DNA from: Phoronis australis
Lineage: Eukaryota > Animalia > Phoronida
DNA length: 64,000 bases
Reading direction: 5' to 3'
Assembly: GCA_002633005.1 (NCBI GenBank)
Contig: NMRA01000827.1
Span: 54,741 to 118,740, forward strand
How positions within the stretch are numbered: the stretch's first letter is position 1; each line of letters opens with the position of its first letter. The translations under genes and the position numbers were made by a program. Below, one piece after another: positions 23,560 to 64,000 of this stretch. A model generated the notes under the pieces. It worked only from the letters and a program-made list of their open reading frames with translations. It did not search any database and was not told the DNA's origin.

Positions 23560-23624
23560 CTGAAACAAGTCATGGAAATCAATAACTGAAACGTTAATGT
23601 AGTAATAGGCTGTCCATCATGTGC

Positions 23625-27556: not shown

Positions 27557-27841
27557 GCATGCGCCTGCACAAAGGACACTAGCATGCGCCTGCACAAAGG
27601 ACACTAGCATGCGCCTGCACAAAGGACACTAGCATGCACCTGCACAAAGGACACTAGCATGCGCCTGCACAAAGGACACTAGCATGCGCCTGCACAAAGG
27701 ACACTAGCATGCGCCTGCACAAAGGACACTAGCATGCGCCTGCACAAAGGACACTAGCTTGCGCCTGCACAAAGGACACTAGCTTGCGCCTGCACAAAGG
27801 ACACTAACTTGCGCCTGCACAAACGACACTAGTCTGCGCCT
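27557..27841. repeat. 25-bp minisatellite, ~11 copies
   Basis: Unit GCATGCGCCTGCACAAAGGACACTA. Confidence 0.97.
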
Positions 27842-28996: not shown

Positions 28997-29300
28997 ATTC
29001 CAGACAGGAGTCATCGCCAAGATATGTGAATTAACTTGTCAACTGCGAATGATCTATTGTCTCCTACTGTTGAATCGAGCATTTGACCCCCAAGTCAACC
29101 ACGTACTTGACAATACGTGAAACCCAGTTTAGTCGAAATCAACTCGACAGACTCAAACTCTAGACTTCACCAATCACGCCACGCGATTCGAGTACAAATA
29201 GGTAAGTTTACCCAGGGCGTGCATGCAATTGGTCAATTTTCGAGTCGAGTTTCGAAAACAGCGACTAAATACATTTTATGCGACAGATGTCATCTCTAAC

Positions 29301-29641
29301 CTGTGACGGTATGTTCCTCGTCGCTCCAACCCATACTCGATTCCTCCCCTGAACTGACACTCAGTAGCTCGGCGTTGCCGGCTACATGGCTGTTGTACAT
29401 TTTTATCCTCGACGACCAACTGATGCCTGGATGTCGCACGGTGTTCTTCAAGCGCCGGCGCGCATTTGCGAACCAATTTGACACTTGCGTGAGAGACATG
29501 TGCGAGCCGACAGCCAGGTTTGCTTTTTCCGCTTTAGTCGGATAGGGATTGTTTTTGTTTTTATACAGCCATTGCTTGAGTGGACGGGCCATGTCTTGTA
29601 AAGTCTGTCTTTTCTGCCTTGGGCGATCCTGCACAGGGCGC
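29301..29641 (-). CDS. Mkx: Homeobox protein Mohawk, coding exon 2 (TALE homeodomain)
   Basis: KRQTLQDMARPLKQWLYK..NPYPTKAEK..LAVGSHMSLTQVSNWFANARRRLKNTVR..SW..RIKMYN..V.GNAE.LSVSS is the diagnostic Mkx homeodomain and flank. Canonical AG/GT boundaries. Confidence 0.97.
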
Positions 29642-32600
29642 CTGAAAATGTATAAAAAAGTGTTAGTGAAACGTCATTTTCTGTACTATACGTTTCAAAT
29701 AGACACCGCTGACGCAGCCATCTCACACGGAAGTAATATTTCATGCGTGCACTCAGAGGGGGTGGGGGCACGCCCCCCCCCCCCCNCCCCATTTGGCGAA
29801 GTGGGCAAAAAGGTCCGCTTCAGAGAAACAAAAAGTTCGGGAAAAAGAGACAAAATTCCACTAAAAGGCGCGAATGCACATTTCAAAACTCTGGACGTGG
29901 TACCCCGTCTTTTTTTAGTACCCCGTTTTTTTGTTAGTAACAGGTCAACATTCTCAAAGATTCGAGCCACCCTATATCTTAGGCTGGGTGTGCGCATGTA
30001 TTTTAATACTAAAAAACTGCTAAATATTCTAAGCTAACTGTCACGAATCCAGGAAGCGAACAAAGACATCGTGTGTTCGTTTAGATTCGTCGAGACATTT
30101 TAATGTGTGTAAATACAATAGGCGCTTTACAAAATTTGATGTACAATTGGAGCTTTCCGGCAAAAATCAAGAGAACTATGGTGGTGGTCATCCTACTCCT
30201 GCGGCCTGCATGGGCGTTAACCCGCGACTTTACGGTACATTTGAGTTGAAATAGAGTGGCCACTGCAGAGCATGAATGTTTTCACATTTCAGAAGTCGGA
30301 AGAGGGCAGAAACAGAACAGAACAGACATATTACAAGCATGTCTACACCTGGACGCTAAGAGACTATGCTAATGAAATGAAATGAAATCAAATCAATGAG
30401 ATGAAAAACAGTGTCGAGCATGTTTTGAATGCATCCAGTATGTTTACTACGGGCCTGTTTGTTTGCGTAAACGGAAGCTATGCCACACATGCGCACACAA
30501 TACTGTAATGGCCACTGCGCTAGGTACAGTTCACTGATCAAGGCACAGATCACTGACAAGCATGCCCGCCAGCACTGCTGTACACTAGCAAGGACAACAA
30601 ATGTGAACCACTTTTATAAAGCGTGGCATTCGCCCTGTTTGTCCGGCATAGCTTAAACATCGGCTTGGTATCATAAGAATACCTTTGCCAAAATTGACAA
30701 ACAATTTCTTCAGAGAGAGTGGGAGTAACATACTCTCCAAACGATAAAAACTGACAAAAATACAGGCAACAGACTTCATATTCAACGTAGAGACTATTTG
30801 TATTCGTACACCATATCTCGGGTTGCACAATCAATTCGCACCAACAGATAGCGATACAATCTTGCAGAAATGCTCTACATAAAACAACTCCGTACCAAAC
30901 CGAGGAGGACCAGTTTTTGGTCCTTTTGAAACAGAGCATTTCCATCATGAACCACAACAATAATACGAGAAAACAGCAACGCCCCAAAAATACATTGACT
31001 TGTCATTTTCCTTGGATTATTATGACGTGAGCGTTCCAGAAATAGAAACGGGTGTGTATCAAATAAACATACGGGTTTTGTTTGTTCGTCTGTCGCCACA
31101 GGCGGGCAAGTTTTAGTTTCAACTCGACATGTTTTTCATTGAAATGCACTTGCTGTTTACAATTATGCTGTAGGCCCTATCAAGGATGGCATCAATTTTC
31201 AAAATCATGAACTTCAAAAGGAGACAGACAAACTGACGAACAATTTCTAGTAAGATTATAAACCCAAATACAACGAGAAGACTGTGAAATGCGTTTTAAA
31301 ACAGGGGTGTGCTCACGGTGTTAGGTTTATTGCCAGCAAGATCACAGAGATGTTCGCGAGATCGCCACGCATTACAAGCGAAGCGGTGATGTCATTCGTA
31401 CCTATTTCGCTTCACAGAAGGCACCCCAGTTTTAGGGGAACGTTTTTGGTGATATGTTCTGATGCCAAGGTAATTTTCTATAGCAAAACAAGCCTATTCC
31501 AACGTTGCAAGGTACATCATTACTGTTAACGTTTGACGCAAAAATGAATCTACTCTTAAAGCCGCTTGAAGTTTTCGGGGTCGGATTAGTCCGTTAAGAA
31601 TAGCTACAGCTTAGGGGCCCTAAACCTTCCCAAGAGGAGCTCGAAACATTGAGGCAACCGGGGGAACCCGTGAACACCGGGGCAGTCAAATTATCCAGAA
31701 TCAATTATGGCTAAGGGTTCACAATGAGGGACTAACCAGCTATACATTAAGACAACCTGTTGGCTGTTGCTAATGCTCGAGATCATGTTGAATGAGTAGA
31801 CTAACAGCGGCACTCATCGCGTTACATGCTGAAAGCAACATATCTGTGCTGGTTCCGTGAGTGAACGCTAGAAGGAGCTAAAAGCTGACACTTTGGCAAA
31901 AATGCTTTCGGAACATATCACAAAGATCAACTGTTGATTTAGATGACTTGTCATGATGAAATAATTTTAAACGTGTTCCCTATAGTCAAAGTAGAGGTGG
32001 TTTTGGGACTTGCAGTTCGACATTGCATAAATTGAAACCAGGGCCTGCAACTTGGCGGGTAACGGCTTGCCACTATTAGTTCCATCAGCTGCTTGCAAGG
32101 TCCAGAAACCATCTCAAATCTGAATAAAAAAACAAGATGACACCAATTCAATAGAGGCAAGTGCTCGAAACCAAGCGTTTGACGGGAAGTATATGACGTT
32201 ACTTAGCAATAACTGTAGTTTCTTCCCAACCCTACAAATCACATCAAATTTTGTACAGAACAAGTTGAGAACAATTTTATAGGGGAGATGAGAAGGTCAG
32301 TGTCAACATTTTTACACAAATTTCAGGCGTTTCTCTAACTTCAATTAGGAATACATGCATGCTTCAAATCCAGTTCAACTTTTTCACCATAACAATTGTA
32401 GATGGAAAAGTTGTCGTTTGCCGGGTAATTTTGTAGTGGGGTGAAGTGAGAAGCCCAAGACAGCCAAAACTGTTTCCACGTAAAATGATGTAAGCTTGAT
32501 AACAGAATTTAGTAAGTCTATAGCTAGGTGCCACTGCCTCATCAGTTATTCTGGGGATTTGAACCGGTTCATTTCTGTTAAATCAATAATCCCTGTTCTA

Positions 32601-37597: not shown

Positions 37598-37818
37598 CTA
37601 AACAGAACACTAGCTACAATTCGTCGCACTAAACAGAACACTTTCTACAATTCGCCGCACTAAACAGAACACTTGCTACAATTCGCCTCACTAAACAGAT
37701 CACTTGCTACAATTCGCCGCACTAAACAGAACATCTGCGACAATTCGCGGCACTAAACAGAACACTTGCGACAATTCGCCACCCTAAACAGAACACTTGC
37801 GACAATTCACCGCACTTA
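37598..37818. repeat. 31-bp minisatellite, ~7 copies
   Basis: Unit CTAAACAGAACACTTGCTACAATTCGCCGCA. Confidence 0.95.
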
Positions 37819-40800
37819 ACACGCATTTTTATAAAGCAAAGCAAAAAATGGCGGCCAAGACGACATTTGATGAGTAATTAATATCAACCACATACTTTAA
37901 TCAACTAATGATGTTCCTCATGGCTAAGGCATATTGTAAGAGGTTCTTTAGTGAAAGGTCATGAAATGGGAGTAATTTGCAGACTAAAACATAAAAGCGA
38001 ATCTATTTTTATGTTCCCATTGAAATAGGAGTAAAGCGTACGTGTGCCGTGCAGGGACCTCTGTAAAGTGACTATTGTGAACCGTTTGATTATAGGAAAG
38101 GAGAAATGGAGATATCAGTTTTGATAACGCAGACCCGGGCACGCGAGAACTGGGACCCATTCTGAAAAGGCAACACACTTTCAAAGTAGTGAGATCACCA
38201 GGTTCGTAAAACATCACGCCTGAACTACTTGACCGTAGTTTCAGCCAAATGTCAGTCAGCACGTACATAATTTGCGTCAGAACTCGAACCAGCATAATAA
38301 TTTTCAACAGCATGTGTGCGTCTCAGTAATGCCCTCAAAATGTTATTGTAATCATAACGCATTTACTGTCACATCGTGAACCATTTGAAGTTATGCAATG
38401 AATTTCACTGAAGTTCGAGGCTGACACCGTAACATATTAACCTAGAATCCTAAAGTGTTTTACGTAACCACAAATGGTGGCAAATGGTGAAACAAATGTA
38501 AATATGCCATATCTGCAGGAAGCGGGGGGGGGGGAAGATTGCCCACAGATTAGGTCGCCGCGAAAACAGCGCGCTGCTGAAGGGAAAGGGTGAACCCAGC
38601 CGGAATATTAGACATCTCATGTCTTCTTTGTATGTACGTGTTTCTGTTGTTAATGTGTGTGCGAATTTCTGAACAACCCCTGAGAACGACAGACCGACAA
38701 TAATGCTGCGATGCAGTCACTGCCATCAGTCGACCAAGCAAGAACGAGGAGTGTGCACTAGATAAGGACAGGCTAAAAGCAATGTGAGCAAGTTGACTTT
38801 AAACCACCGCACTGTCGTCTCAGTGAATCACGATTTGGAGTTTGCGATTTCAATTTGACCTAATCATCGTTGAATGGGACAAAATTAGCAACAGGGTGCC
38901 TTTTTCAATTTCTTGGCCTCGCAGAACTGATACGAGATTCTGCAGCAACGTTGAACAACAAGAGTCGAGTTTAACAACTGCCTCGCGGAGAGAAAACTCT
39001 CAGACACAATTACATGCTCTCATTGAAAAAACACGGTGATATCACGCGAGATCTTTATCTTCTAGGGAGACACTGGCGTAACTTACTGTACGCAGTCCAG
39101 AAGTGAGCGAGAATCAACATTCGTGAAACACGAACAGTACCAGATCCACCAAGCTAACTAAACTGAGGCCCGCATAAAGCAAGGGAACCGCCTGGTGACC
39201 ACAGGGACCACGAAAGCTGTGGCGGGGTGACAAAAGAGGGTGGGGTGGCCGCGAGGGGTGGAGAACTGCGACGACCGGTAGCAGTTCAAATTGTCAGTTC
39301 TCCCTCCCCATACAGTTTAGGTCACCGAAAAAACCTTAGCTCAGCATTGGTGTGAATGTTCATAATTATGAGTTTTAATGTTGGACACTCAGTGCATGCT
39401 CGCCTTTGACTAAATCCAGGCTCGAGTTCACCGTTACGCGGCGAGAAACACCTAGTCAAAATCACGTGCTCCCATTGAAAATGCATGACGATATCTCGCG
39501 GATCCTTACAATACCGTGTTGTTAGAAAAACTAGTGAAACTGGACGGTTCCCAAGTTCCCAGGTGTATTTTGTGAATGCACAATGATTTGTTTAATAAAA
39601 TGGAAGCTGATGACCCACCATAACTCCTTCTCAAATGGAGTGCACAAGAGAAATATTCCGTTGATTGAATGCAAAGAAGCTGGCAAACAATGAGTCACGC
39701 ATAAATTTTCTTATTTTGTAGGCGGTTGCATTTGATTAGGTGAGACAAGCTCAACACGAAGCTTATATGCTAGACGCTTATAACTCTAAAATGTAACAAA
39801 ATAGGTTTGCGTGCGGTCTCATAACACAAATATTATAACCCAGTCGTAGATTTTGCATAAGATATTGATTTTGTCGATTAAAAAAATTGACGTGTGCTCT
39901 GCTCCATCCGCCAAAATTGCAATATGCTTGCTTGTTCTCTACGTGCATACACGCCTGCGTTCATAAAGCCTCGAGCGAATTAGTGACGTGGTTGTAAAAA
40001 AATAGCTCGGTTCATTGACCGGTTAGCCGGGCTACTCATGTTTAAAGCTATTGACGGTCATGAATGTAAAAATGTCAGTCGTTGTGTGTGTGTTGATTTT
40101 TCGTTGCGCAATGAAATTTGTTTTATAAAGTCACCTCGTATGGTAAATGCAATGTTGGGTTCTTAAAATCAAACTGAAACCAACATCTGGCGAGTAATTC
40201 TAGAGGTGACTGGGTACAAAAATGACACATCGCGATTCTTGGAACGAGCCTAGCGGAAATGCATCACAAAGATAACAACATGCGGCCATAGCACTAACAA
40301 TGCACGTCTGCAAAAATACACAACGATAAAATGGTATAGTGATATCAAAGAAATATCGGTATGAGCTTACGGATTAGGACAGTGTTATTTTTTGCAAGTT
40401 TACACACAAGGTGCATTATAGTCATTTAGATAAGCTTGGCGAATGGTTCACGTGAAGTCTGATGAAGCACACCTCGGTATGGGACGCAGTTACTTAATTT
40501 AACTATCACAGTAATTTTCTAGGTACCGCCTCACGGTAGTGCATGGCGAGTCGGGTCGCTAGGTCAAAAGAACGTTGCAAAACAACGTGCCGCGGCGCCC
40601 ACTCTATACCTTTGCCGGCTAATCAAGGTAGACAAACGGGGGATGGGGCAACCACAATTTTGGAAGGAATATGTCAACAGCACTGCGTTTCACTTCAAAC
40701 ACAGCATATCATAACTTAGAACCAAAACTGAATCAGACAAATCTTCTCTAGACTATTGTACATAATTCTTTAGAGTTGTGTAACAAGATTCAACGTCACG

Positions 40801-41219
40801 GGTTGTTTGGTCGGAGACGCTTGGGTAAATATGTCGTGACGTCAATAAGTGAGTACATGCACTCAAGATCACAATAGCAAGGCATTTAATATGAAGACGG
40901 AAAGCTTCGAATGACTAAGCAATAATCCAAAAACATAAAAGTAGTGTGCAGACTGCGTTTTACACTAGAGGATGTACCCAGGGTGTAAATGTGAAAAAGT
41001 TAATGACCAGGGGAAATCCGTCGGCACTCTGCAATTAAGATACACCTGATAGGCAAACACGTTGGCCTGTCGATAAACTGAATAAAAGACTGCACGCATG
41101 GCCAGACGTCTTCATTTTCACCAACAATGTATCGGCTCTGCCCCCTCACCCCCCAACATCAACGAATGCCAACTTAGTACTACTTGATTAGTTTTCTGGT
41201 TGAAAGGAACTATGGTTAC

Positions 41220-41542
41220 CTGTTGACGCGGGACCTGAGACTTATCCTTGGCCTCTCTCCTGCATCGTCCCTTGCTTGCAAATACCCTTCTGCGGGGATT
41301 CCACAGTTTTCATTGTCATCGTCATCATAAGAAGTCCTCGAAAAATCCGGCGACTTGTAATCCAGCACGGAACTATCGCGTAAACTTGTTCCGTCGTCCA
41401 TGGTTGAGTCACGACTAGTACCATCGCCTTTGTTGTCTGTTAGTACCAGGTGATCGCCCGCCGGTCTATTTAACACTGAACTCAGCTGATCGCCCGGCGA
41501 CAGCGGTGTTAAGTCACTCGTAAAATCAGAATTTCGGTCCAT
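41220..41542 (-). CDS. Mkx: Homeobox protein Mohawk, coding exon 1
   Basis: ATG in good context (ACCATGG), open frame MDRNSDF...RSRVNR, donor AG|GTAACC. Phase 2 matches the homeodomain exon acceptor. The assignment rests on phase and position, not motif. Confidence 0.75.
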
Positions 41543-42226
41543 GGTTACATGTTCGGAGAAAAATCTTGTAGGGGCGAAACAAAATTCGGCACATGCAATT
41601 CTTGTGTATAAATTACCTTGCGAAGTCGTACAAGGATCGACGTTATGGATTCTATTACATAAATCATTTGCTCGTGTAGCCAGCCATTTGACCAGTGTTA
41701 ATGCCCTCAACCTTGAACTTGACCTCGGACACTGTATCTGATTGGACAACACGGCAAGCACGTGTGACTAATCATTCGCTGAGCAGGAACTCAGCCAACC
41801 TTCTTAAATTTGATACAAACGCTGTGTTATTACAGCCTGCTCGCAGTATTGTATGGTATCGATTATGAAATCAGCTGATTACATGACCTGTTTGTATTAG
41901 CTCGGGTGAATGCATTCACTGGCCCAGATTCAATTCAATGTGGTGACCCGGGAATGTCATAAAATGGAACGTGTGCAGTATTCGGAGACCGGGAAAAAGG
42001 TTGCCGACTATAAACGTGTTGCAACAAGCGTGGCGCAGATGTAGGTTTGCATTTTTAATGGTAAAAGTAACGTATTTGTAAACTAAGTAATCCCGCATTC
42101 GTACATCGTGTCGTAGCAGCTCATGTACTTTTCCCGGTGCATTCGTTTAGCGATACTAAACTAATTTCGAACGGCGTCAGTACTCACAATGCGGGAAAGG
42201 AAAAAACTAAGCCTAAAGAAATCAGG

Positions 42227-46498: not shown

Positions 46499-46836
46499 TA
46501 CTATATTGTATATACAGTTCGTAGTAGTCTACATGTTATTGCACGCCAAAACATTAACCTACGTTGACTATATTGTATTTACAGTTCGTAGTAGTCTACA
46601 TGTTATTGCACGCCAAAACATCAACCTACGTTGACTATATTGTATATACAGTTCCTAGTAGTCTACATGTTATTGCACGCCAAATCATTAACCTACGTTG
46701 ACTATATTGTATATACAGTTCGTAGTAGTCTACATGTTATTGCACGCCAAAACATTAACCTACGTTGACTATATTGTATATACAGTTCGTAGTAGTCTAC
46801 ATGTTATTGCACACCAAAACATTAACCTACATTGAC
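46499..46836. repeat. 67-bp minisatellite, ~5 copies
   Basis: Unit ACTATATTGTATATACAGTTCGTAGTAGTCTACATGTTATTGCACGCCAAAACATTAACCTACGTTG. Confidence 0.95.
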
Positions 46837-47794
46837 AACATCTGCATCTGTCGCAAAGGTAAACATAGTCACCAAACAATGCACAGATTCAAATGTATTG
46901 ATGTTCCGTCCGTATCATTTAGAAACAGTTAGCAACCCCTGAAATTTTAACAATAGTTGTCACCAGGCAAGTTCATTGACACATGTGCGATTGACCGCGA
47001 GTGCACCGAGAGCAGCGCCATCGTTTGACCATGGAAAGTCGTAGCATAATCTTCGTCTTCAGCGGTCAGTATGAGGTCGGATTTCGGGCTTCTTTAAATC
47101 AAAGATTCTAGATGCCTAAGAGAAATCAGACGCACCGTTTCTAATACACAACCAATTAACCCTTTCACTGCATCACCCCGGCCAACCCGCGATCGATAAC
47201 GACCGGAAGGCGATCGGAACGAAATTTGGCGCGAGAAGCGAAGCCAGAAAATGTAAATAAACTTGATGAATTTTTGGTTGTTTTGAGCTTCAATACGAAA
47301 ACAGAGACATGAGTTCAAGGCGTAACACATTGAGGAAGGACAGGTAGAAGTTTAGGCTTGTGTCTCGTCCAAATATTGGAGAAAAGTTACGTTAACCGAT
47401 GCATCGCTTGAGCCGAAGGTGATTTGTATGTCATTTTTGCAGATTTTGGTTATTTTTAGTTATATATCAATATATTAATCATCAAGTTATGAAGAATTGA
47501 CGAATGAAAATGTAACCCAACGCTTGTTTTCCGTAGCATTGTCAGGATCTCTGATTTATGAACCTTTTTCTGTTACTAAGAAGCGATCGAGAACGCAATG
47601 AAAGCGATCGGGAACGCACATTTGAGTTCGCTAAAGCGATCGGGAACGCATTGCGATGTGTTGAACATTAGTGAACTTTTCAGCAATAAAGAGTTTTAAA
47701 AGTTACAAAACAAGTGTGGTTCAATGAATTAATGATATTTTGCATCATTACTGTGTTACTTTCGTGTCAAAAACTAAATTTCATAGCATAGCAT

Positions 47795-48081
47795 CCCATA
47801 CCAAAAAGGCCTCCTGCAAACACTTGCAGCAAGCTTGCCGCAAAAGTTTCTGCAAACCAGCCACAAACACATGGAATGATCTGTTGTAAGTTTCCTGCAA
47901 CCCAGCCGCAAATATTGCAGCAAGCTTGCTGCATGTTTCCCACTAGCATGCAGCAAACTTTCACCATGCAAATGAAGTTTGCAGCAAGCCCTCAGCAAAC
48001 ATCTCCATGTCCTTATTTGTAACAGTTCCTGCACGGCAGCTACACACATTGCTGCAAGCTTGCTGCAAACATCTTCATGGG
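47795..48081. mobile_element. TGCA(G)CAAG-rich non-autonomous element with CCCAT...ATGGG ends, in transposase intron 1
   Basis: Many TTGCAGCAAGCTTGC-type subterminal repeats and short inverted ends. No clear TSD. Confidence 0.5.
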
Positions 48082-49566
48082 GTTATGGATATTTTCACAA
48101 ATGATGTTATTTTTATTTCAGGAAACAATTTCATTGTTATTATTGCCCGGCAAGCTTCATCGACCATGAAAAAAATCATTGCCCACGCTGTGGCGGTGCA
48201 CCCTTCCAGGGTTTTAAAGTACAGGCGTCTCCTTTTAGATGTAACTACTGGGAAAATGGGACTCCAAACTAAGACGCACCCAGGAGTTATTCCAGGAGAC
48301 GTATCAGCTGGGGGAAAACAAATTGTTGCGGCTGATGAAAGTGAGTGTCGAATATTTTTACAAAACTGCGACAACAAAAGAAAAAACCGAACACGCCAGT
48401 GAAGTCAAGCAATGATAGTGAGTTTGCCAAAGAAAATCTGAAAATAGATGAGACTCCCAGTAATGAAGAATTAGAGTTTGACAAGTTGTGCTTCTTGCTT
48501 CCCCAAGTCATAGAGACAATGAAAGAAAATGGTCTCGTGGAATCTTACGTGAAACTGAATGAACTTCTTGCCTCAGGTAGACTGCCTTTGAACAACATAT
48601 GTTTCCTACTATTCCTGGATATAGTTGAGTGGTTTTCGGTGGAAAACACTTCCAAAATGCGTTACCAAAACCCACAAACTCTTCGGTTCTGGGAAATTGG
48701 CTACCAGCTATTTCATGGAAAGTTCATCAGATTTATGTCTGGACAACGAAACACAGGTCAGATTTTAGACCAGTCAACAGCAAGGGGAGAGTATACATGT
48801 AGCCCAGGTGAATCCAAAGTGAACTTTGCAGTGCCATCTCTGACTACATTACAACATAACCTTTCTAAAAGGAGTCCGTTTTTTCCAGGAATAAACAGGC
48901 AGACAATTGAAAATATAGCCCACACTTATGAAAGCTCTCCTGCAATTTTAGCTGTGGATGGAAAAAAATATTGACCTGTGGGGTTTTGAACCAAATTCAA
49001 CTTTTCAGGAAAGACTGAACCAAGTTGAACGAGAAGTAGAATTCGTGAATGAGCTAACAAAAGAAACGGATTTACTAATGACCTATAGTGTTCAGACCAT
49101 TAGTGCAATACCCTCAACGTCACGTGAAAAAATTCATTCCGGACTCGTTGAATTGGTTAAGTTCATAGGATATCGTAATAAAACAATGAGAGACACTGAA
49201 CAGACGCTAATCCGCTCTGACAAAACGCAGTGAAATTCGTGCCCACCTAAAAGAAGGTCTTCAGCTGTCAGACAAGATCACAAAATTGGGAATTGACCTA
49301 AATGGGAAATCAAACCTTTATTTCGAGAAGTTAGTTAAGCTTGCAGAACAACAGAACTTTTATTCACTGAACCCGAACTTCAATAAGTCAACTGATCCAC
49401 GTTACATGCAACAAAGAACTCCGGAGTGGTTTTCTTTGCGCAGGGAAGCGAAAGTTACTGGAAGTACAGCCAATTGTGCACTCGGCTTAGAGACCTTAAA
49501 AAGACAAAAAGAACATTTTCATCAAGTAATTCACGGCATAGAAAAACCTGGTCACAGTGCACTTAA

Positions 49567-52500
49567 GTATCAGTCCACGGATCCACCGACCACAGTACAG
49601 CCAACAAGCGGCAAGGTGGGGGGTCAACCATTCAGATCCATGATTAGTCTGATCAATCACATTAGGGATAAGAGAAAATGGGTGAAGTATGACACCACAA
49701 AGTTTGGTGGTTTAGGAGATAGAAGGGAAGTGTTCTGGGGTGCAAAATGAAGCAATTTCTTGGTGTGGAATGAGTCATTTTTGACCAAATTTTCTACTCC
49801 AGTTTCTGCTTCAAACAGAATCGTTTCTGAACAATTTTGATATCACATAATAGGTTCATGACCAATGTCAGTAAAAACGGCACCGAAACTGCAATATCGG
49901 TTACCATGGTAACACTGGAACTGTTTCCGTGGAGGTACGACGTTTCCGTCTTGTGAAAAACCAGCAGTAAGCTGTACCCTTATAGCGAAGCTGCCCCCAC
50001 AAGAAAACTAAAAATAATAACATGGACATGTAGAAGACTCCATGCCCTTGAAATTAATACAATAAAAACTTTGTCAGCCCTTCATGCAGGCTTGGTAATA
50101 GGTGTCTGAATTTCACTATTTTCAGACCGCGTATGTGTATTTGTCATGTTAAACCAGTCACTAGTTGTGAGCCGTTTCTACGCATTAATATGCCGTGGTA
50201 TAATACAACAATTAAAACAATTGGTTTGCTTAAATGTTTTTAATTAATTTTAAGGACACTAGCATTTCCCAATAAAATATGAAATTATACTAAATTTGTT
50301 CATCCAATTCGTCTGAATACCAAACTAAATTTTACAATGCGTTAGTTGAATGATGGCTGACCTAAAGTTCGGGTTTGCGAATTTATCTATTTATCTGGCA
50401 CTGCCAGTCGCATCAAATGTGGTATTTCTACAAATTGCGGAGGGAAACAACTTTGGAAACTCTAGGGAAATGCACAAGGTATAGAGCGAGACATTTAGCA
50501 CCTTATAACAGTACGTGGAGCTGATGTGGAGGTGGAACGTGTCCTCCTGAGTAGTCTGTCTCAGTGTCTGCCTCGGGGGCACTATGTGAAGCAGGAGCTA
50601 CATAATCTACCGTATTAGGTTCACTTGCCCGAATCATCGTTACAACACTCGAGATATATTGGCGTCGCCAAAGACACTTAGAACATCCACTGCACACTAG
50701 AGGAAAAATCTGATACAGGTCTGAAAACTGACCAAAGACGTTAAGCCAAGGTTTAACGTCCTGCTTCGTGTGAGCTCAGGTAGGAATCACTAAACTCCAG
50801 GGTCAGAACCTGAGGAATATTTTTAGAAACACGTCATTCATGCAAAAATACTTTTATTGACACACCGTGATTGCTTATAACTTGGGCCTTATTGCTTAAT
50901 CATATCTTATTCAAATGTGTTGATGTTTATGCAACTACATGTATACATTGGCACAGAAAATAGGTACAGTCATCATAACTTTTCATAACAACCACCAAAT
51001 GTGTAACATGACTTCTTCCCATGAACTACTTTTAGAGACTAGGGAGTATGTTTTTGTCTACCAATGATTTTCTGCGATTATGAAGTTAATTAAACATGCT
51101 AAAGCTGTCAGAAATATTGGTGCCTTCACTTTAGCTTGGTATTCATATTTTGTGAGCTGAAATGGCCACATTAAATTTAATATGTTTAATTTTTCATTAA
51201 TACAATTTTAGGAATCAGGGTATAGAAAAGTTCACAACCAGCAAGAAGGTACCCTTCTGGACAACTAAGTGAGGGGGCTAGAGAGAGGCCGAAAAGTCTA
51301 CTACCAGAAGATATGTCAAAGAGAATTTTTAGCTTGAGGAACGAGTTGGGGAAAAAGTATTTGCCAAAGATTACTGGCTTATACCACAACAGGTCCAAAG
51401 TAATTTGTTGAGATAGGCCACTTTCAGCAAATGTGGGGAAACTGGGACAGACGAAGTGGTGTATGCATAGAAAGAGGCAATCTGCGATTGTCAAGGATGT
51501 AGCAAGATTGTAAAAATTCAAAGGGAGGAAACAGTACAGTGGCTGGACCTGTAAATACTATGGCTGATCTGCTAAATCCAGTGGGGGTATTAATGTATCA
51601 GCACAGCTGTGTAGGGAAGTAGGCTTGTGTGTTGTCGCAAGCTTTGTTTGCACCAGAACTGCTTGTGTGAACAGTACAAATCTAAAATTTACCTAGTCTA
51701 AGACTGAATTTTTGTCCAGGCACGGATTATGATCCTGCGCCACATGGTAATGGTACATTGTTCACTTTGTTTAGCCGCTGGATTTTTTGGTCTGACAGGA
51801 TTTCTCAGTGTCGCCATCACATTTAGATCATTTCTGACCACTGTACTATTCTTTTTCCTTGAAGATGCGTAATTGATCTGAATTTATGTTTCCGCATTTT
51901 ATTTACCATTATAGATTTTTGTTTGTAAATGGGTATATATTACTGAAATTTGAGACCCTGTCGCAGTTAGGCTGGTTTTGTTAACTTATCTTTCTGCCTG
52001 AGTTGGTAAACCCATATTCTGTCCAGGAGGTAATAAGTTTTGATTTAGACCATTTACCTCTTTAAACTTTGCTCAGTTTGTTCCTTATCCAGATGGGAAG
52101 TGATTTCTGGAATTGTAGCGAATTGACAGTTTGCTATTCCTTAAGACCATTCTGTGTGTATAAAATCACACACTATTATTCTGGTCTCTAGCAATTGCAT
52201 ATTGCCAGATCTTTCAAAGTTCTGAAATTGCTCAAAAGTGACCTGGAAGTAATACCTATTTTGTGATGGTAAAATATCTAAATCAAAAGTTGTTTTATAT
52301 GAGTTTAGGCGAGTTTATGTCCACTTCAAATGATTTTTTGTTGCAGTACTGAAAAATATTGGCACATTAGCTATGGTGGTTCCTAGTTTTTTTGGCGAAT
52401 TGACCATTTTATGGTTCCCGTGGGTAATTTTGTTACTGGTCTAGTATGTATGTACAACTGTAATCGTAGGGCAATTGTAATGCAAACCATGTTGCAANAC

Positions 52501-55500
52501 CTTATAAGAGTACGTGGAGCTGATGTGGAGGTGGAACGTGTCCTCCTGAGTAGTCTGTCTCAGTGTCTGCCTCGAGGCACTGTGCAGTAGGAGCTACATA
52601 ATCTACCGTATTAGTTTTGCCCGAATCATCGTTACAACACTCGAGATATGTTGGCGTCGCCAAAGACACTTAGAACATCCACTGCACACCTGATAGAGGT
52701 CTGAAAAATTACCAAAGACGTTTAAAGTCAAGGTTCAACGTCCTGCTTCGTGTGAGCTCAGGTAGGAATCACTAAACTCAGGGGGTCTGACCCTGAGGAA
52801 TATTTTTAGAAGCCCGTCATTCATGCAAAAATACTTGTATTGACACACCATGATTGCTTATAACTTGGGCCTTATTGCTTAATCATATCTTATCCAAATG
52901 TGTTGATGTTTATGCAACTACATGTATACATTGGCATAGAAAATAAGGTTGTCATCATAACGTTTCATAAGAACCACCAAATGTGTAACATGACTTCTGC
53001 GGTACTTGATGAAAATCTCTGATCCCTCATACAAAACAGATGGTTACATTTTCTGCGATTATGAAGTTAATAAAACATGCTAAAGCTGTCAGAAATATTG
53101 GTGCCTTCACTTTAGCTTAATTGGTATTCATATTTTGTGAGCCGAAATGGCCACATTAAATTTAATCTGTTTAATTTTTCATTAATACAATTTTAGGAAT
53201 CAGGAAAGGCTTATGCTGAAGAAGTGGCTTCTGCTGAAGTTGGAGACTTGCCGATTATTAGTAAAGGTTGGGTATAGAAAAGTTCACAACCAGCAAGAAG
53301 GTACCCTTCTGGACAACTAAGTGAGGGGGCTAGAGAGAGGCCGAGAAGTCTACTACCAGAAGATATGTCAAAGAGAATGTGTAGCTTGAGGAACGAGTTG
53401 GGGAAAAAGTATTTGCCAAAGATTACTGGCTTATACCACAACAGGTCCAAAGTAATTTGTTGAGGGAGGAAACAGTACAGTGGCTGGACCTGTAAATACT
53501 ATGGCTGATCTGCTAAATCCAGTGGGGGCATTAATGTATCAGCACAGCTGTGTAGGGAAGTCGCAAGCTTTGTTTGCACCAGAACTGATTGTGTGAACAG
53601 CACAAATCTAAAATTTACCTAGTCTAAGACTGAATTTTTGTCCAGGCACGGATTATGATCCTGCGCCACATGGTAATGGTACATTGTTCATTTTTTTTAG
53701 CCGCTGGATTTTTTGGTCTGACAGGATTTCTCAGTGTCGCCATCACATTTAGATGATTTCTGACCACTGTACTATTCTTTTTCCTTGAAGATGCGTAATT
53801 GATCTGAATTTATGTTTCCGCATTTTATTTATCATTATAGATTTTTGTTTGTAAATGGGTATATATTACTGAAATTTGAGATCCTGTTGCAGTTAGGCTG
53901 GTTTTGTTAACTTATCTTTCTGCCTGGGTTGGTAAACCCATATTCTGTCCAGGAGGTAATAAGTTTTAATTTAGACCATTTACCTCTATAAACTTTGATC
54001 AGTTTGTTCCTTATCCAGATGGGAAGTGATTTCTGGAATTGTAGCGAATTGACAGTTTGCTATTCTTTGAGACCATGCTGTGTGTATAAAATCGCACACT
54101 ATTAGACTGGTCTCTAGCAATTGCATATTGCCAGATCTTTCAATGTTCTGAAATTACTCAAAAGTGACCTGGAAGTAATACCTATTTCGTGATGGTAAAA
54201 TATCTAAATCAAAAGTTGTTTAATGTGAGTTTAGGCGAGTTTATGTCCACTTCAAATGATTTTTTGTTGCAGTACTGAAAAATATTGGCACATTAGTTAT
54301 GGTGGCTCCTAGTTTTTTTGGCGAATTGACCATTTTATGGTTCCCATGGGTAATTTTGTTACTGGTCTAGTATGTATGTACAACTGTAATCGTAGGGCAA
54401 TTGTAATGCAAACCATGTTGCAAAAGTATGTTTTCATGACCATTTCATTGTAAAATGCTGCCTAATTGGAACCGACAAGCCAATTTTTCATTTTGTGGTG
54501 GTTAGTTTTGATAAGAACATTGATGTGGTAAATACAGCTACCTCAAGTTTATGAAGAAGAGATTTCCAGTGTTGTCAGCGATATTGCGAAGAAATCACTT
54601 TTTCGCAATGAGACTGCATCACCTTAAATGTAATTCCCTGACTTTATGGGCTTTGTGTGGTTGACTCTGTCCTGTAGCAATTAGAGTGTTGTAAAGATCT
54701 AGAAGGCATTTTTTTATTAGAGTCATAACATTTGCACTCTGGACTGTACAGTTATCTTTGCATTGCATTACGAAAACATTTTGTAGTACACAAGTCTCTG
54801 GTTGGTATTTTATATTTTTTTCACGAGGAATATTTTCAACTTAGATGAGTTTTCTGTGAGGTAGGCAATTTTCAAATAAGATAATGAATAAAATTGTCAA
54901 ACATTGTTTTATTTTTTAGATATGTCATCTTCCAATAAGTGATTACTTTTAAAAAACCTGTGCAGAATTTGATTTTTACTCTTCATTTGAAGGAGAATAA
55001 ATCCATAAACCTGCATTGTCTAGAAATTTTACTCAAACTACATAATACAGGGTTGGGGACTGGAATCTTAATACAACAGAGTCTGAACCCGTACCATGAG
55101 CAATACAACACAACACACGGATATAAAAATTTGGTGTTTAGGTTCCACGGAAAGGATTCGTGCGCGCGGTAATAGTTACTAAGGTGCGTGGTCATTGTTT
55201 GTGAATACTTTGGGATTCCTCTTCTGTGGTCATCCACGGGAAACCTGGTCGCATAGAGAACAATAGATTAGCATCTTCATTGTTTCCGTTGTTATAATAA
55301 AGATATAATGACGAGCACTTATCGGCAACGGTCTGATGTACGCAAGGTTCTATATCCATGCAACCTGTGTTGTTACATCCAACAATGACACAACGAAGGA
55401 AAACAATGANTTTAGAAAAACGCAATATTTTGAGGAAATATTTTACCGCTGTTTATAGATCCCATAGGACTACCTATGTGCCAAATTTGGTGAAAATCGG

Positions 55501-55544
55501 CTGACCCCCACCTTGCCGCTCATGGCTGGTGCTCTCGTGGACTA
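49567..55544. mobile_element. ~6 kb nested TIR element (Academ-like termini), decayed
   Basis: Left end AGTCCACG..CAGCCA..AGCGGCAAGGTGGGGGTCA; right end TGACCCCCACCTTGCCGCT..TGGCTG..CGTGGACTA. Flanked by GCACTTAA on both sides. Removing it restores the host reading frame. Confidence 0.8.
50501..54423. repeat. ~2 kb tandem duplication (50501-52497 and 52500-54423)
   Basis: Both units start CCTTATAA.AGTACGTGGAGCTGATG and end TGCAAACCATGTTGCAA. A single n sits at the junction (52498). The units have reciprocal indels. Confidence 0.92.
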
Positions 55545-58500
55545 GCACTTAACACTCAGAGAATGCTTTATGGAACTGAACACGAACTGGATGCAGTCGC
55601 AACAATGACATCTAAAGTGTTGCCGTTTCTGTTTCCAGAACTGAGCTATTACGAAGAAGGATGCCAAACAATACCTCACGGCGACAATGCAGCATTCATG
55701 GTAGTGAGTTCGCATGGCAGTCTCTGGACAAATGATAATGCAGAACCAATAATGATGTATGAAAACAAGTGCAAACCACCCCAGTCCTATAATCCTAACG
55801 CATACTACAAGATTCCTAAATATTACGCTGTACAGTTACTCTCTGAGATGTTTGCTTATAGATGTGACAAATTACTCTTTACGTGCTGGTCAGAGACGTC
55901 CCCTACTGCTTCCATGGTTAATTTCGACCATCATCTATGGGGAATGTGCTGGGAGGAAATGACAGAAGTGTATGGCAGTCCAAATCCAAAGCTACCTACC
56001 AAGTTCAGACCTAGTCGAAAGTTCATCCAAGAACAAATCGCTGCATTTATGGAGAATAATATCCACTTTCTCGCTGAGTTTATGTCGTGTGTTGCTGTGA
56101 GATCACCATCGTCAGACGTCCAAAGTGATGACGTTTATATATCGCCACAGAGTTCAAATGACGCCAAGCCAATTTCTACAGCTAAAGACTTACAGAACTG
56201 CCTTGTGTCGACGAAAAACTGGATTAATCGGGCTTATCAGTTGTCTAGGACAACTGCATCCGAGATTCTGGTCTACATGGTGAACAATTTAGACCGGACT
56301 TACCATGCCGAAATAAATGTTGCTCATCCTATAGCGTATGCAATGAAGGGAACAAGTATGAATAATGTCACCTTTAGAAGTATGATGAATCACGTTATCT
56401 CTGAATGTGAAGCAAGGGGTCTAAACGTGCTGGCCACGTCTAGTGATGGACAATGGCATAAGTACGGAGTTCGCGGTGATGACAACGAACCATTGACTGT
56501 CTTGCAATTACAGAAAGATCACTGGTCAAGTGTGATGTCACAAGATAAGAAGACGATTTTGTCCCAAATAAAATCTAAAGCAAGTGTAAAGAGTTTTCCT
56601 GAAGATGTCCAAAAAAGAGTACAATGTCAATGGTTCCGTGACTGTCTGGCATAAGACAGATTCACCGATGACCGGGTATCTAAACACAGAGCACTCAAAA
56701 TCCCAGAGAAATGCAATCATTGATGCTACTTGCCAGAACAGATATGATGGAACTGAATCTCAGCTGTTATCTGTAAAAGAAACATGTCTCGCACTCCTTG
56801 AGGATTAACACTTTGAAAACACCTCTCTCGAAACTCTAAATGCTGTTGAAAATATAATTGAAAGCTCAGTAACAAATAACGTGCAGAATTCGCATGAGTT
56901 CCTTGGACAGGACTATTTTGTCGAACCATGGTTGTTCCAAGAAGAACCGATTGCTACACAAAGTTTTGGCGTAACATCTGACGTGCTCTCTGGGGCTTTT
57001 GAGGCCATGTACAGTAATGGCCATGACGACTTCTATGTGCAAACTGTGATCGATATGAGTGTTGATAAAATACCTTTAAGAAGAGATGGTGACCATATGG
57101 AATTGGGCGAAGAAAATCTCAACTACGCAGTATATGCCAATGATGACAACACATGTGTGGACACAGAACATGTACTTCAAAGTAAGGAGAATGGAAATGC
57201 GGAGTTGTTAGTTTCTGAGAATCGTTACACTGTGGACACTGCAACGTCTGAATCCATGCTGAATGCTTTAAAAGCAAATGAAATGGCTGAAAACTATCAT
57301 AAATGGTCACAAAAACTGTTGAAGACTTCAAAAGACTTTTTGCATGTAAGACCACTTGCAATAAGGCACTCCACAAGTGAACTCCAAATGTGTCTACAAG
57401 TGTTACGTGTGCAGCACGGTGTTTGTTTTGACATTAAACCTTAAAGAAGGAGCTAGTTCAGTTGTTCATGTCTACATTGAACTTTGGGGTAAATCCCCCT
57501 ATAGGAAGTATCATCAGCGCAATCCAAGTGTTTGCTCACTTAGAAAAATGTGTTGTTCTGTTTTAGAACGTGCATCAAAACAAGAGCTTGCTAAGATTCT
57601 CGCTAGCAGAAGACACATGTCATAAAGCTTTACAACAGTGGATTGAATCTGGACCATTGTACCACACTTCGTGTTTTCTTGATAGTGAAAATAGTATGAA
57701 GAATTGGTTTTCTCGTCCAAATACTGACCAATACGGCAAGAACAGGTTCCACTTCACCGACGCCTATCACATTTTGACTTGTATTAGGACAAAACTCTGT
57801 ACTACTGGAATTGCTGGTTTAAAGCGAAAAGCATGGGAAGATGTTGCTCTATCTCGCAAAACCCATCTCAATATTGCTGCGATTGAGGATTGCATTGACA
57901 AGCAAGATGTAGCTTTAGCAAGACGTGTATTTTCCAGGGATGTTCAAGAAAATATGCTTGACGAATATGTCGAGAAAGAATTTTGTGAGTTAATTCGAAA
58001 CTGGTTTGATGCCGAGGACGAGCCTGCCATACCTGCTGCTGAAAGATGCATCCGAAGGCTTCGACTTACAAAATGGCTTTTAGAAGAATTTGCAGTGAAC
58101 ACATTTCCGCCACAAACCCGATATATCAGAGGCATACCGATACAGACTTTCGAGGCATTGTTGGTGCACTTGGAAAGGAAAATGCAAATTTTCCCTTTCT
58201 GCAGAAATCAAACATATAAGGTTCGTGCAATAGGTTCTCAGCAGGTGGAAAACTTCTTTTCAACATTCCGAGATATGAACTCCACTGGACAAGGGAGACC
58301 AAAACCAGACTCCATTCCTCAAATGATGACAGCAGTTGCAGATTTAGACTACTGCAGAATTGACCCAAGCAGGTAAGCATGATTTAGAATCAAGCTTTTT
58401 TCCTACACATGATTAACTGTAAATTACGTGGACATATCAACTCTCATGTTTGATATTTTACAAAAGTGTTATTTTTTCAGTTAAAATTTTGAAGATGTGG

Positions 58501-60205
58501 CAACAAAACGCTCCGTGAATAAAAAATGAAAAAAATGTTTCACATACCTATCCTCTGAGCTGTGACAGGAAAAAAGTTTTGAGGGCGATGTAAGTGTAAA
58601 TTTATTTTCACACAAGGGCTCGTATGTATAATCAAAATAGTTAGGAACTAGTTGAACTGTAAGAAATTATATTAATTTAACACTTAGCTTGTCAGGTTTT
58701 GTAAGAGGTGCCACTAAGAATTTGAATTGTTTCAAATGTATTCACATTTACATGTTTAATCTTCTATAAAACCCCCTACTTGGTTTCAGATCATTCTATA
58801 TGTCAACCCCACGAGCCGGAGTGTATCCAATGAGACAGTTTGAGTCCGATGAAACCCAAGAATGTTTTCACGGCCAAACGCAAGACATTCATTCTGCATT
58901 AGTTTTTAGTCTGATAACTCCGAGGTTAGTGTTATGTGATACACGTTAACTGTAATTGTTTTCTTATATACATTACTTTTTTCTGTAGTCAACTTTCTCT
59001 TTTTTCGTCTTCATCTATTCGTTATCATGTCGCGTATTAGTGCTGATAAAGTCACGTAAAGCACCATTGTTTTAAAAAATATTCAAATCGTGGCATTTTC
59101 AAATAAGCAAGGTCTTCATGAGCGCCGGGTCAAAAATACCCTTCAATAAATAAACGTCCAAGCGCTTGTGCGTCGTATTACGGTATTTCCACTACTTTGA
59201 AAACAACGGGCAAGTGTAATGCAGCTTACAGGCTAGCGTCGAAAGCTTAAAAGGAGGATTGATTACTCATTAAATTTTGAGACGTCATAAGGTCGCAACC
59301 CTTTCATTCTCTTCAGTAGACGACGATACAAAATTCAAGATTCCTTTTTCCAGGGACCATTACTTTGATTCAGTGCAAAGAGATCGGAAGAAGCATCTTC
59401 GGAAAGGAGGGAAAGTGTCGTTGCCAAGCGAGTCCGCCCATGGTGAGAAAGGAGTGCGACAACACCATTCGCGAGATGACTCGAAGATACCTGCTCATAA
59501 ACGACTCGGATTTCAAAATTTGTCAGAAGTTGTGTAGCCAAAAGTATTGTGGTGATAAAAGTGGTGGGATTTTGTTTAATGGTTTACTAATAACATCCAT
59601 ACAGAGTTGAACAAGACTGACTTGCTACATCCTTGTGGCTTGTATGTGTTTGTGTTCTTGGACCCGAGTTCACTGTGCTATTTCAGTTCATGGGACATTG
59701 AAAAAGAGTGAGAGGAGTTGTAATACACATACTATATTGTGATTTTCTCAAAACGTGACAATGTTGTCTTTAAGTCATTTCAAGACACACTATAGTAACT
59801 ACACTGGAAATCAACAATATGAAAGCAAATTCCGTAATAATAGTAATTGTTTAGTCACACATCATCTCAAAATAGGTCATAAAAATATATAAAATATAGC
59901 TCTGGGTAGTCAACATTACAAAGGCATTGAACATTCCCCACGAGGTATTTTTGGAATGCATTGCACTTATTATAGACACTTATTTTATCTATCTTAAACA
60001 GAACCAGTGCATTTTTGTAGTGTTTAGGTATATTCAAATGACCGTACTAAGTGCCATTGGCCATTGTTATTACCATAAGATTTTAAAAAGAAAATAACAC
60101 AAATGTAGAAACTTTAGAAAAAGGTTCAAAATATCACATCTGGCAACTGCCAACCATAAACTCTTTTAATCAGAATAAAAACTTAAGCAAATTTCACTAC
60201 TGGAC

Positions 60206-60715
60206 TTAACGAAGCTTCTGTTTTTTGTGCCTACAGAGGGAGGCATAATGCTTGTACGATTTGCCGCATTCACAACAGAAAGCAGTGACCTCATGTTGTG
60301 ACGCGATGTGTCGCTTTTAGGCTCACTTTCTCTGTGAAACATTGGTTGCAGGCATGACACTGAATTGTCTTGTCTCCTGAGCACAGTGCTTCATGTTGTG
60401 ACTTTTTATACCTATTGAAAAACTTCTTGCCACATGAAACACGTGGAAATGCTTTGTAGTTTGCGTGCTGGCTCATGTGATCTTGAAACTTTGTTTGTCT
60501 CACGAACACTTTCCCACAGTCCGTCACTGGGCAGGTGAACGTCTTGGTTGCAGTCCTGTCACAATACTTTGTTGCCATGTGGTCAAGCAGTGTTGATTTT
60601 TTACTAAACGAAGCTCCACAAGTCACACATTGTCCTTTGTCACAAGCACTAGTTCTCCTTTTTGAAGGTGTAGACGTTAAGAAGCGAAAAGACTCATCTT
60701 GTGGCAGAAGTTCAA
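60206..60715 (-). pseudogene. Multi-C2H2 zinc-finger protein exon inside the transposon, with one frameshift
   Basis: Acceptor TTTTTTAG at 60716. Fingers CVTC..F..L..H, CPVTDC.K.F..F..H...H, (R)VSC.K.F...H...C and CHAC..F..L. After a frameshift: RHIASQH and CCECGKSY..L.RH, then a stop. Confidence 0.8.
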
Positions 60716-61748
60716 CTAAAAAATATCAAAAGCATTTCAGTTATACTTGTTAGGTTAAATCTCACAAAAATCAAGAAAAACAGTGAAGTATAATAAACAA
60801 TCAACCCACCCGGCGCCTATTTCAGGGTACGTATTAAATGTAAAACTGACATAACACCGTAACTTGAACGAGTATTCAGGCCAATGCATAGAAAAAGAAT
60901 GTGCGTTCACGATCGCTTTTTTTGCGTTCACGATCGCCATATGAAAGTAAGGATTTCGTTCTCGATCGCCGTCTCACCCAAGGACAAGATTGTATTGGTA
61001 AATATCTCGAATTGTTTCACAAAACATAACTTCGAAAGGTGTCACCTGGGGCAATGAAGCTCTAAACGTCACACTTCTTTACTTTAGAACTCTGGAACTG
61101 CTAATAACAGGTAAAACTTGTCGACTTAACGACGCGCAAGGCATTTTATCGGAAGGCATTACTGCTGGGCCGTTTATTTGATGAAATAAGCAAAAGCCAG
61201 GCATCATTTCAGATTGGCAACAAAGGTTAAGCTCTGACGCTTTTCTCTGTGTCGCATTCGTGCCAAAGTAGCCACTATTTAAGAAGAAAATGACACTAAG
61301 ACTCACCGGGTACATCATCGTCGTCTGCCATTTTTGCGGCAAAGTGTCGTTCTCGATCGCTTTCCGGTCGTTCCCGATCGCGGGTTGGCCGGGGTGTGCA
61401 TGCATGAGTTCATATTGGAATGGTGTTGCAAATGCACCGGGTAATACGGTCTGTTTGCGCCTTTACTTGACGCTTCGTTTCAATATAACAACATTGCCCC
61501 AAAAACAACTCTGCCAGTCGATCATGAATTTGTCAAATTAGAACACCCGGAACACTATCTGACGACTTGACAGTTAATTGATATCGAGCATTTATTGGTC
61601 GATACGTAATGCGTAAAATTGGGACAAGTAATCCCAGCTTTAGTTATCCTTCATTGTGTTCAACTAGCGGAATGTCCGGTCAGACTTTGCTGCTTGTTTT
61701 CCCTTGGTTCAATAAGGAATGGCGAGGCGTTGCGTTTGTAGTGGTTGT

Positions 61749-63037: not shown

Positions 63038-63450
63038 CACTCCCTTACAAAAATGAACTTAAGTTTTTCGCTGAAAACTTAAGTTTTTCAGCACAATGTT
63101 AAGTTTTTCAGAAAACTTAAGTTTTTTCAGGTGTAAAACTTAAGTTTTCACAAATAAACTTAAGTTTCATGTAATAACTTAAGTTTTCATGAAAACTTAA
63201 GTTTTTTGAACTAACAAAACTTAAGTTTTTCTGATAACTTAAGTTTATCACAAAACTTAAGTTTTTGTAGTTTTAAAAACTTAAGTTTTCCTGAATTATT
63301 AAGTTTTTCGAAAACTTTAGTTTTTCCAATTATAGAAACTTAAGTTTTCCTGACTTCTTAAGTTTTTCAGAAAACTGGATTTTTTCATGTTTGGAAAACT
63401 TGAATTTTCTAAAAACTCTAAGGTTTCTATGTGATGAAATTTACGTTTTC
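63038..63450. repeat. Array of palindromic AAAACTTAAGTTTT motifs, probably the end of a CACTA-like non-autonomous element
   Basis: More than a dozen copies of AACTTAAGTTTT, decaying rightwards, preceded by CACTCCCTTACAAAAA. Confidence 0.7.
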
Positions 63451-64000
63451 TAGTTTTTAAAATTTGAATATAGTGAGATATTTTTTAATTTTTGGTTCAA
63501 AAATTTTCCCATTATTTTCCAACAAAAAATAATTATTTGCTCATGCAAAACCCATCGTCTCATAAAAATGTTGCCCGAATGTTTCCTTAACATTTATATA
63601 GATACAAACCATAAAAGGACGAAAGTTTAACCAGTACTGATTTAGTGCAATTACGTAATCATTATCGCACGTGAATTTAAATGTAGACGAACATCCGGTG
63701 ACCAACAGCAGTAAGAATGTATCCAATGTTAATCCCCTGAGATACTGACCTGGTCAGTACAATCTAATCAATAGAACTCATGTAATTCTTAAAAAAACGT
63801 AGTTATTGTGCAAGTTTCCTTTGTGTTGAGTTGTATTCGTAAGGCAGTTTCCACCGGAAGTCAACAGTTTGAATTTTATAACGACAGTCAACTTCGAAGA
63901 AAAAGTCGTGTGTTGGCTAGCCCGCGACAATGAAGTTTATATTACTACGAGCTGAGCCAGCAAGAAGACATTTCACAAGTTTTGGAAGTCAGGTTAGTGC

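Follow-up and report, generated by a model that had tools for sequence, protein, structure and literature searches.

A decayed two-gene DNA transposon in Phoronis australis with a predicted P-type transposase and an exonuclease domain in its core

The element, its ends and its two genes

The stretch of DNA analysed here (the window) comprises 64,000 nt of contig NMRA01000827.1 of the phoronid Phoronis australis, and contains at 47174-61396 a transposon bounded by terminal inverted repeats (TIRs), with a transposase gene and a second, convergent gene for a C2H2 zinc-finger protein. Each TIR (47174-47216, +; 61354-61396, -) spans 43 nt and starts with CAC, with 93% complementarity between the two, and the termini of the element are CA...TG. 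Their outermost 22 nt are identical; the window contains this 22-mer twice, and none of 100 shuffles contained it. Directly outside both ends is the sequence TGCAT (47169-47173 and 61397-61401), a putative target-site duplication (TSD). Comparison of the flanks at the TIR-defined ends over lengths of 1-12 bp reveals exact direct repeats of 1 and 5 bp only. At 7, 8 and 9 bp, the lengths of a P-type TSD, the flanks of this one copy differ at seven, seven and three positions, respectively, and shifting the ends by up to six bases generates no exact repeat longer than 3 bp, hence none of 7-9 bp. The probability of an exact flank repeat of at least 5 bp by chance is approximately 0.0016. The exact TIR had no match in the viral contigs searched.

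The transposase gene lies on the forward strand. It begins with an ATG at 47309, which lies 135 bp in from the left end, and with a 35-nt exon (47309-47343) that runs to a splice donor and joins exon 2 at 48122 in frame, a predicted splice that gives an N-terminus like that of homologues. The first part of exon 2 (48122-48968), which contains two frameshifts and a third at its end, encodes a C2H2/BED-like finger, a helical region and strand 1 of an RNase H domain with the first catalytic aspartate (D1, 48957-48959); this helical region belongs to the stretch that, in the homologue model described below, aligns with the N-terminal part of the P transposase. Downstream are a helical-bundle stalk and the N-terminal part of a YqaJ/lambda exonuclease (QRTPEW...R...TGS; 48969-49566), with a frameshift near 49210-49230. 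A nested element then interrupts the gene (49567-55552); cutting it out restores an open frame of 479 codons and leaves a net element length of 8,237 bp. The remainder of the exonuclease, a return helix and RNase H strands 2-4 with the second catalytic aspartate (D2, 56445-56447) are encoded at 55553-56654. The piece at 56655-57569, broken by several frameshifts and stops, encodes an acidic linker and a helical region. The next piece, 57570-58373, encodes DxxH (57759-57770), a P-type GTP-binding-like insertion domain and the catalytic glutamate (58248-58250), and has a splice donor at its end. The start of the following exon (58790-58850) encodes part of a C-terminal domain that is conserved in homologues, and the last coding piece (59289-59534) a basic C-terminal domain with homologue matches down to E 1e-16. 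The approximately 430 extra bases upstream of this last piece may be an intron or an insert.

The motifs DxxH, DKQxVxxAxxxFS and QxVENFFS are legible directly in the translation of the window. In the exonuclease, E-x-K is intact (55761-55769), while the PD motif has decayed to SSHG (55707-55718). Because of this decay, the four frame changes before the nested insert, the further frameshifts and stops in the linker and one frame break in the partner gene, the copy in the window is dead.

The partner gene, on the reverse strand, has a first exon of 25 nt (61307-61331), with an ATG 66 bp inside the right end, and a putative splice to exon 2 (60200-60715), which encodes about five C2H2 fingers (PF00096, E 1e-11), some of them degenerate, with the frame break near 60294. 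The short first exons of the two genes are thus parallel. A 15-bp motif is present in five copies per end, two within each TIR at +16 and +37 and three further in, within +410 to +481. The left inner cluster (47583-47651, +; +410 to +463) has three copies of GCGATCG(G/A)GAACGCA inside intron 1 of the transposase gene, and the right one (60901-60969, -; +428 to +481 from the right end) lies inside the intron of the partner gene.

Much of this agrees with an initial annotation of the stretch, made from the letters and their open reading frames, which had described a TGCAT duplication, a transposase starting about 135 bp inside the left end, a convergent C2H2 gene from the right, a net length of about 8 kb and motifs of the P-element/THAP9 type, and had proposed rebuilding the protein by removal of 49567-55552. 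Its TIRs of about 60 bp are real, although the figure is slightly generous, as it is reached only with gaps. Two features escaped that account: the YqaJ exonuclease embedded in the transposase, and the motif arrays at subterminal positions.

Predicted fold and conservation of the transposase family

An AlphaFold model was generated for the homologue P0106 (1,181 aa; alignment of 67 sequences; predicted local distance difference test score 87.3, predicted template modelling score 0.83). Foldseek placed the Drosophila P transposase (6p5a) at rank 1 (E 2.4e-5), and by VIA-align this structure was top of 48,161 chains, with Z 30.1 and a root-mean-square deviation (rmsd) of 3.0 over 377 of its 442 resolved residues. 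The next matches, LHK-Exo (Z 15.8) and lambda exonuclease (Z 15.7), are to a domain inserted in the transposase. Other transposases were well behind: Transib (Z 13.3, rmsd 4.8), RAG1 (Z 12.2, rmsd 4.5) and Hermes (Z 10.2). The piece of the window at 57570-58373, modelled separately, matches residues 318-565 of 6p5a (Z 14.1, rmsd 3.0, 203 residues aligned), with Transib next at 6.2, and its nearest Atlas cluster bears families of the P-type GTP-binding domain (GBD).

In the P0106 model, strand 1 bears D220; after it come three long helices, then the exonuclease (approximately residues 400-610), a return helix and, last, strands 2-4 with D759. Approximately 470 residues, bundle plus exonuclease, are inserted between RNase H strands 1 and 2, and the D1-D2 spacing is 539 residues compared with 73 in P. 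The predicted transposase fold is thus of P type, with a lambda/YqaJ exonuclease between the first and second catalytic aspartates.

At the level of sequence, a family profile searched against the PDB matches LHK-Exo (E 5e-5) and lambda exonuclease (E 0.01). Sequence searches of the PDB, whether by window pieces or by family profiles, missed the P transposase, which emerged from structure comparison alone. No P-family Pfam model scored above its cut-off among the queried pieces, and no member of a 43-sequence C-terminal alignment matched the P-type GBD or C-terminal models at E 1. Among 34 long homologues, the P-type RNase H N-terminal model gives a weak match in 14 and YqaJ (PF09588) a match in 21. 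A THAP domain was found in none of these 34 at E 0.1, some of which may miss their first exon, nor in the window pieces.

The segment order is common to all 59 homologues of at least 800 aa: N-terminal region, D1, helical region, exonuclease, RNase H strands with D2, acidic linker, DxxH and E. The segment profiles were derived from the same 59 proteins and are therefore evidence on order only. The exonuclease is at the same position in 58 of the 59. The transposase residues are almost invariant (D1 35/36, D2 66/67, the two residues of DxxH 66/67 and 67/67, E 64/64), and those of the exonuclease nearly so (D 55/57, E 54/57, K 54/56). In the 34 rows that cover all six residues, D-D-E is kept in 33, D-E-K in 30, and both in 29. 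This family-wide conservation of catalytic residues shows that the exonuclease is under selection. The arginine and serine aligned to lambda R28 and S35, which we take to form the 5'-phosphate pocket, are kept in 42/45 and 41/46. Between DxxH and E there are just two isolated cysteines, approximately 70% conserved and 64 residues apart.

As a query, 57570-58373 gave 14 longer protein matches with up to 62% identity, and the family comprises 552 protein clusters at E <=0.001, the best 150 of which were returned. Named relatives come from the gastropod Batillaria (KAK7507914.1), the bivalve Pinctada, the annelid Owenia (CAH1798622.1) and the amphioxus Branchiostoma (B. belcheri, KAI8490370.1); of 20 relatives looked up, five bore names and four of these an organism, and Pinctada came from a separate protein search. 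Two clusters each contain four proteins of equal length (1,608 aa in the cluster of P0007, and 1,253 aa), approximately 99% or more identical and on separate contigs, which argues for recent mobility. In the databases, the family proteins are named 'YqaJ viral recombinase domain-containing' or 'hypothetical', and none of these names labels them as transposases.

A search with a designed sequence pattern yielded 54 loci, which tblastn separated into 17 relatives and 37 chance matches; none was in the viral contigs. A separate search for related loci in viral and metagenome contigs gave no confirmed relative. Two family members, locus L003 and protein P0006, are on short contigs in bacterial metagenome-assembled genomes labelled Candidatus Thiodiazotropha, most likely as host contamination.

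Opposite-strand C2H2 motifs are present downstream of the transposase in seven of the 17 related loci, including all six with more than 2 kb of downstream sequence; the 10 without them all have less than 2 kb. Same-strand C2H2 motifs were found downstream in none of the 17, and the control DNA, 407 kb of mainly bacterial sequence, had none at all. The presence of opposite-strand motifs in seven relatives, set against empty controls, indicates that the two-gene design is a family trait. Locus L049 (2-2440, +) has a partner zinc-finger reading frame of no fewer than 813 aa that includes a long Pro/Thr-rich region and is far longer than that of the window.

Ten related regions were scanned for end motifs. 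The two-cluster layout recurs in L016 and L044, each with a motif of its own, and CAC is found 12 and 20 nt, respectively, before the first motif copy; the L044 contig starts at that CAC. As evidence for CAC ends, these relatives are weak. A candidate CAC right end in L022 was dropped, having no backing from the motif scan.

Proposed mechanism and relationship to known transposons

We propose, with a probability of roughly 0.6, that the locus holds a dead two-gene cut-and-paste transposon with a P-fold transposase and a lambda-type exonuclease embedded in the transposase core; the zinc-finger protein would bind the end motifs, insertion would be with a 5-bp stagger, and the exonuclease would resect the excision break. 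The C2H2 protein would recognize family-specific motifs and so stand in for a THAP domain. Such substitution in trans is the somewhat favoured view, given about five fingers for a 15-bp motif. A P-type dimer would pair the element ends, and the DDE site would cut and insert. The embedded exonuclease would then chew back the 5' strands at the excision break. The domain is quite probably an active 5'-to-3' enzyme that serves transposition; that its substrate is the donor flanks is more tentative, at a little under even odds. In that case the resulting gap could be repaired homologously from the sister chromatid, which would return the element to the donor site, with a net gain of copies. Resection of donor flanks is favoured because the unrelated transposons ISL2EU (PMC4482050) and KolobokE (PMC9587614) recruit the same nuclease, whose benefit therefore does not seem to be tied to P chemistry.

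Several observations weigh against this interpretation. The 5-bp TSD is read from a single copy, and both ends were found in none of the 17 related loci (11 of at least 4.5 kb and six shorter). The right flank runs on as GCAT after the TSD and so gives the site a TGCA periodicity; identical flanks would result if a 9-bp duplication had later undergone a 4-bp slip on its left side, which requires an extra event and is less likely. We regard 5 bp as quite probably the TSD length of the whole family. The full-length model is that of P0106, which is approximately 33% identical to the window copy in the C-terminal piece, and the PD motif of the window's own exonuclease has decayed. The C2H2 partners are weakly alike (E 1e-4 and 2e-3 to two of the seven), a homologue search with the partner protein of the window found nothing, and the control DNA was mainly bacterial. 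The two-cluster layout is clear in two of the 10 regions scanned; L041 has the outer cluster only, and seven have nothing comparable. In addition, an N-terminal CxxC...H...H finger, present in the window copy and in seven of the 59 long homologues, could itself bind the element ends.

The same element might instead use its exonuclease on its own non-transferred 5' strand after the cut, leaving a long 3' single-stranded end as in P. P transposase, an oddity among cut-and-paste enzymes, needs GTP and, by a staggered cut 17 nt within its TIR, generates 17-nt 3' overhangs; the order and mechanism of this cleavage are stated to be unknown (PMC7776569). A 5'-to-3' exonuclease yields such a product, and protein bound at the first motif (+16 here, between +12 and +20 in L016 and L044) could stop resection there. 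P transposase itself, though, needs no exonuclease for that end, a processive exonuclease would have to be halted at an exact position, and the recruitment of the same nuclease by ISL2EU and KolobokE, which are not P elements, also speaks against this role, which we consider rather unlikely. It is improbable that the element belongs to an ordinary, already catalogued P-superfamily family in which the true TSD is 7-9 bp and both exonuclease and C2H2 gene are incidental passengers. The models do have a P fold. P elements as a rule have a CA terminus, which the CA...TG termini suit. Zebrafish Pdre2 begins with CA (PMC10983969), the TIR with subterminal repeats approximately 400 bp inside resembles that of zebrafish Pdre (PMC7776569), TSDs of 9 bp exist in a divergent P element (PMC3698922), and Repbase was outside the scope of the search. 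Set against these points are the lack of THAP in all 34 homologues, a flank duplication that is exact at 5 bp and at none of 7-9 bp, and the constant place of an exonuclease with conserved catalytic residues. The position of the partner gene is likewise conserved, no P-family Pfam model exceeds its cut-off, and the sequence profile misses the P transposase in the PDB.

A relationship to Transib/RAG appears very improbable. The genes of RAGL elements are convergent, their ends begin with the same bases as the heptamer of the recombination signal sequence, and their TSDs are of 5 bp (PMC7204232); the CAC ends and, in its one copy, the 5-bp TSD of the present element resemble those of Transib and RAGL/ProtoRAG (6pqx, 6b40), and Transib and RAG1 are the next-best transposase folds. 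The structural match to them is much weaker than that to P (Z 13.3 and 12.2 compared with 30.1, rmsd 4.5-4.8 compared with 3.0), past CAC the TIR departs from the RAGL consensus of protostomes, the second gene encodes a C2H2 array instead of a RAG2-like protein, and no exonuclease is described for Transib/RAGL. As the fold is clearly P and the partner is C2H2, parallelism is the best reading of the CAC ends and the 5-bp spacing. The initial annotation had seen a blend of P and Transib/RAG traits in the element, and this part of it is not supported. Its P-like transposase without THAP is, and the structure comparison that it proposed recovers a predicted RNase H-like P fold. Its further suggestion, a distinct and possibly undescribed lineage, holds in so far as no description was found in the literature searched, but not as a combination of P with Transib/RAG.

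The proposed two-gene element with a core exonuclease therefore has to be placed beside P. It is like the P superfamily (Drosophila P, THAP9, zebrafish Pdre, Galileo, 1360) in its predicted fold, including the GTP-binding-type insertion, its D-D-E triad with DxxH, its CA termini and its TIR plus subterminal repeats. It differs in the absence of THAP, the bundle and exonuclease between strands 1 and 2, proteins of 1,200-1,700 aa, the second convergent C2H2 gene, an apparent TSD of 5 bp rather than 7-9 bp, and GTP-contact residues that are partly kept. In P, these contacts are K385, K400, V401, S409, F443, D444, N447 and D528 (PMC7776569). By a mapping on motif spacing only, V is kept in 28/67 family members (N in 20/67), S in 51/67 and F/Y in 62/67; K400 is replaced by S, N or D, D444 is variable, N447 is D in 67/67, and D528 is L or Q. 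The element would work like P, yet two defining features of P, THAP and the 7-9 bp TSD (PMC3698922, PMC7776569), are lacking in the sequences examined, and it is not classed as a member.

The nuclease itself has close counterparts elsewhere. In fold and catalytic motifs, the inserted domain resembles lambda exonuclease and LHK-Exo (3sm4, 3sz4; PF09588), but it is embedded in a transposase, not a free phage enzyme, and is known from a predicted model. KolobokE, of the Kolobok superfamily, has a TTAA TSD, RR termini, an exonuclease that lies downstream of its transposase domain, and also a zinc finger between DxxH and E (PMC9587614); here the nuclease is inside the core between D1 and D2, with CA termini and a TGCAT TSD. 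ISL2EU, of the PHIS superfamily, shares the two open reading frames and a YqaJ exonuclease, but this is on its second frame, and it has a Harbinger-type transposase with THAP, an AT TSD and GG termini (PMC4482050). The literature searched, which did not extend to Repbase, Dfam or subscription journals, described no P-type transposase that has an exonuclease inside it. YqaJ is absent from the available text of PMC5718144 and PMC10294476, and family members may appear in the supplements of the cited papers and in curated libraries, that of PMC10294476 among them. That the family is already catalogued somewhere is possible, at perhaps one chance in three.

The family may be a superfamily-level sister of P, undescribed and of wide distribution, with recent activity in molluscs, annelids and amphioxus. 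Its ends would be recognized by the separate C2H2 protein and it would process its own DNA ends with the core exonuclease, perhaps without GTP, the 5-bp stagger arising from CAC ends as in Transib/RAG. We hold this to be plausible, although just short of an even chance; if true, it would provide a natural experiment on the origin of the long 3' overhang and GTP dependence of P. A large family with a predicted P fold, a core nuclease, no THAP and a different target stagger offers a direct comparison for P transposase. The near-identical intact copies mean that the role of exonucleases in transposons, open for ISL2EU too (PMC4482050), could be addressed by a point mutant in one protein.

Other features of the window

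The nested element at 49567-55552 consists of 5,978 bp plus one copy of an 8-bp duplication, GCACTTAA, and is outside the design of the transposon that it interrupts. It has imperfect inverted ends of its own and no open reading frame of more than 123 codons, and is probably a non-autonomous hAT-like element. Within it is a tandem duplication of approximately 2 kb (50500-52497 and 52499-54423, with a single N between), possibly an assembly artefact. In intron 1 of the transposase gene, an insert of approximately 300 bp with palindromic repeats of the CTTGCAGCAAG type (approximate limits 47794-48090) is probably an unrelated miniature inverted-repeat transposable element. The sequence TTAACCCTT just left of the TSD prompted the idea of insertion into a piggyBac-like end; this was unsupported, as a match to the other end extends in the window to no more than 4 bases and a copy of the empty site is absent.

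A TALE-class homeobox exon (PF05920, E 4e-18), presumably Mohawk-like, is at 29296-29673 (-), and candidate further exons of this gene are at 41216-41767 (-) and 23117-23569 (-). If 41216-41767 is the first coding exon, the transposon is inserted approximately 5.4 kb upstream. The region 4196-9776 is a very long imperfect inverted repeat (foldback) centred near 7200, with arms of more than 2 kb and many segments that are 86-95% complementary. Tandem arrays with periods of 67, 25 and 31 are found at 46500-46836, 27557-27841 and 37598-37821, respectively, and a palindromic array of 18-60 bp at the end of the window (63056-63465). At 969-1051 (-), adjoining a gap of 902 Ns, is a short Cys-rich frame (WCKCTVCVVMPTSIECLCC), which we take to resemble the P2X7 C-terminal/KolX-type domain of Kolobok and Harbinger-like elements.

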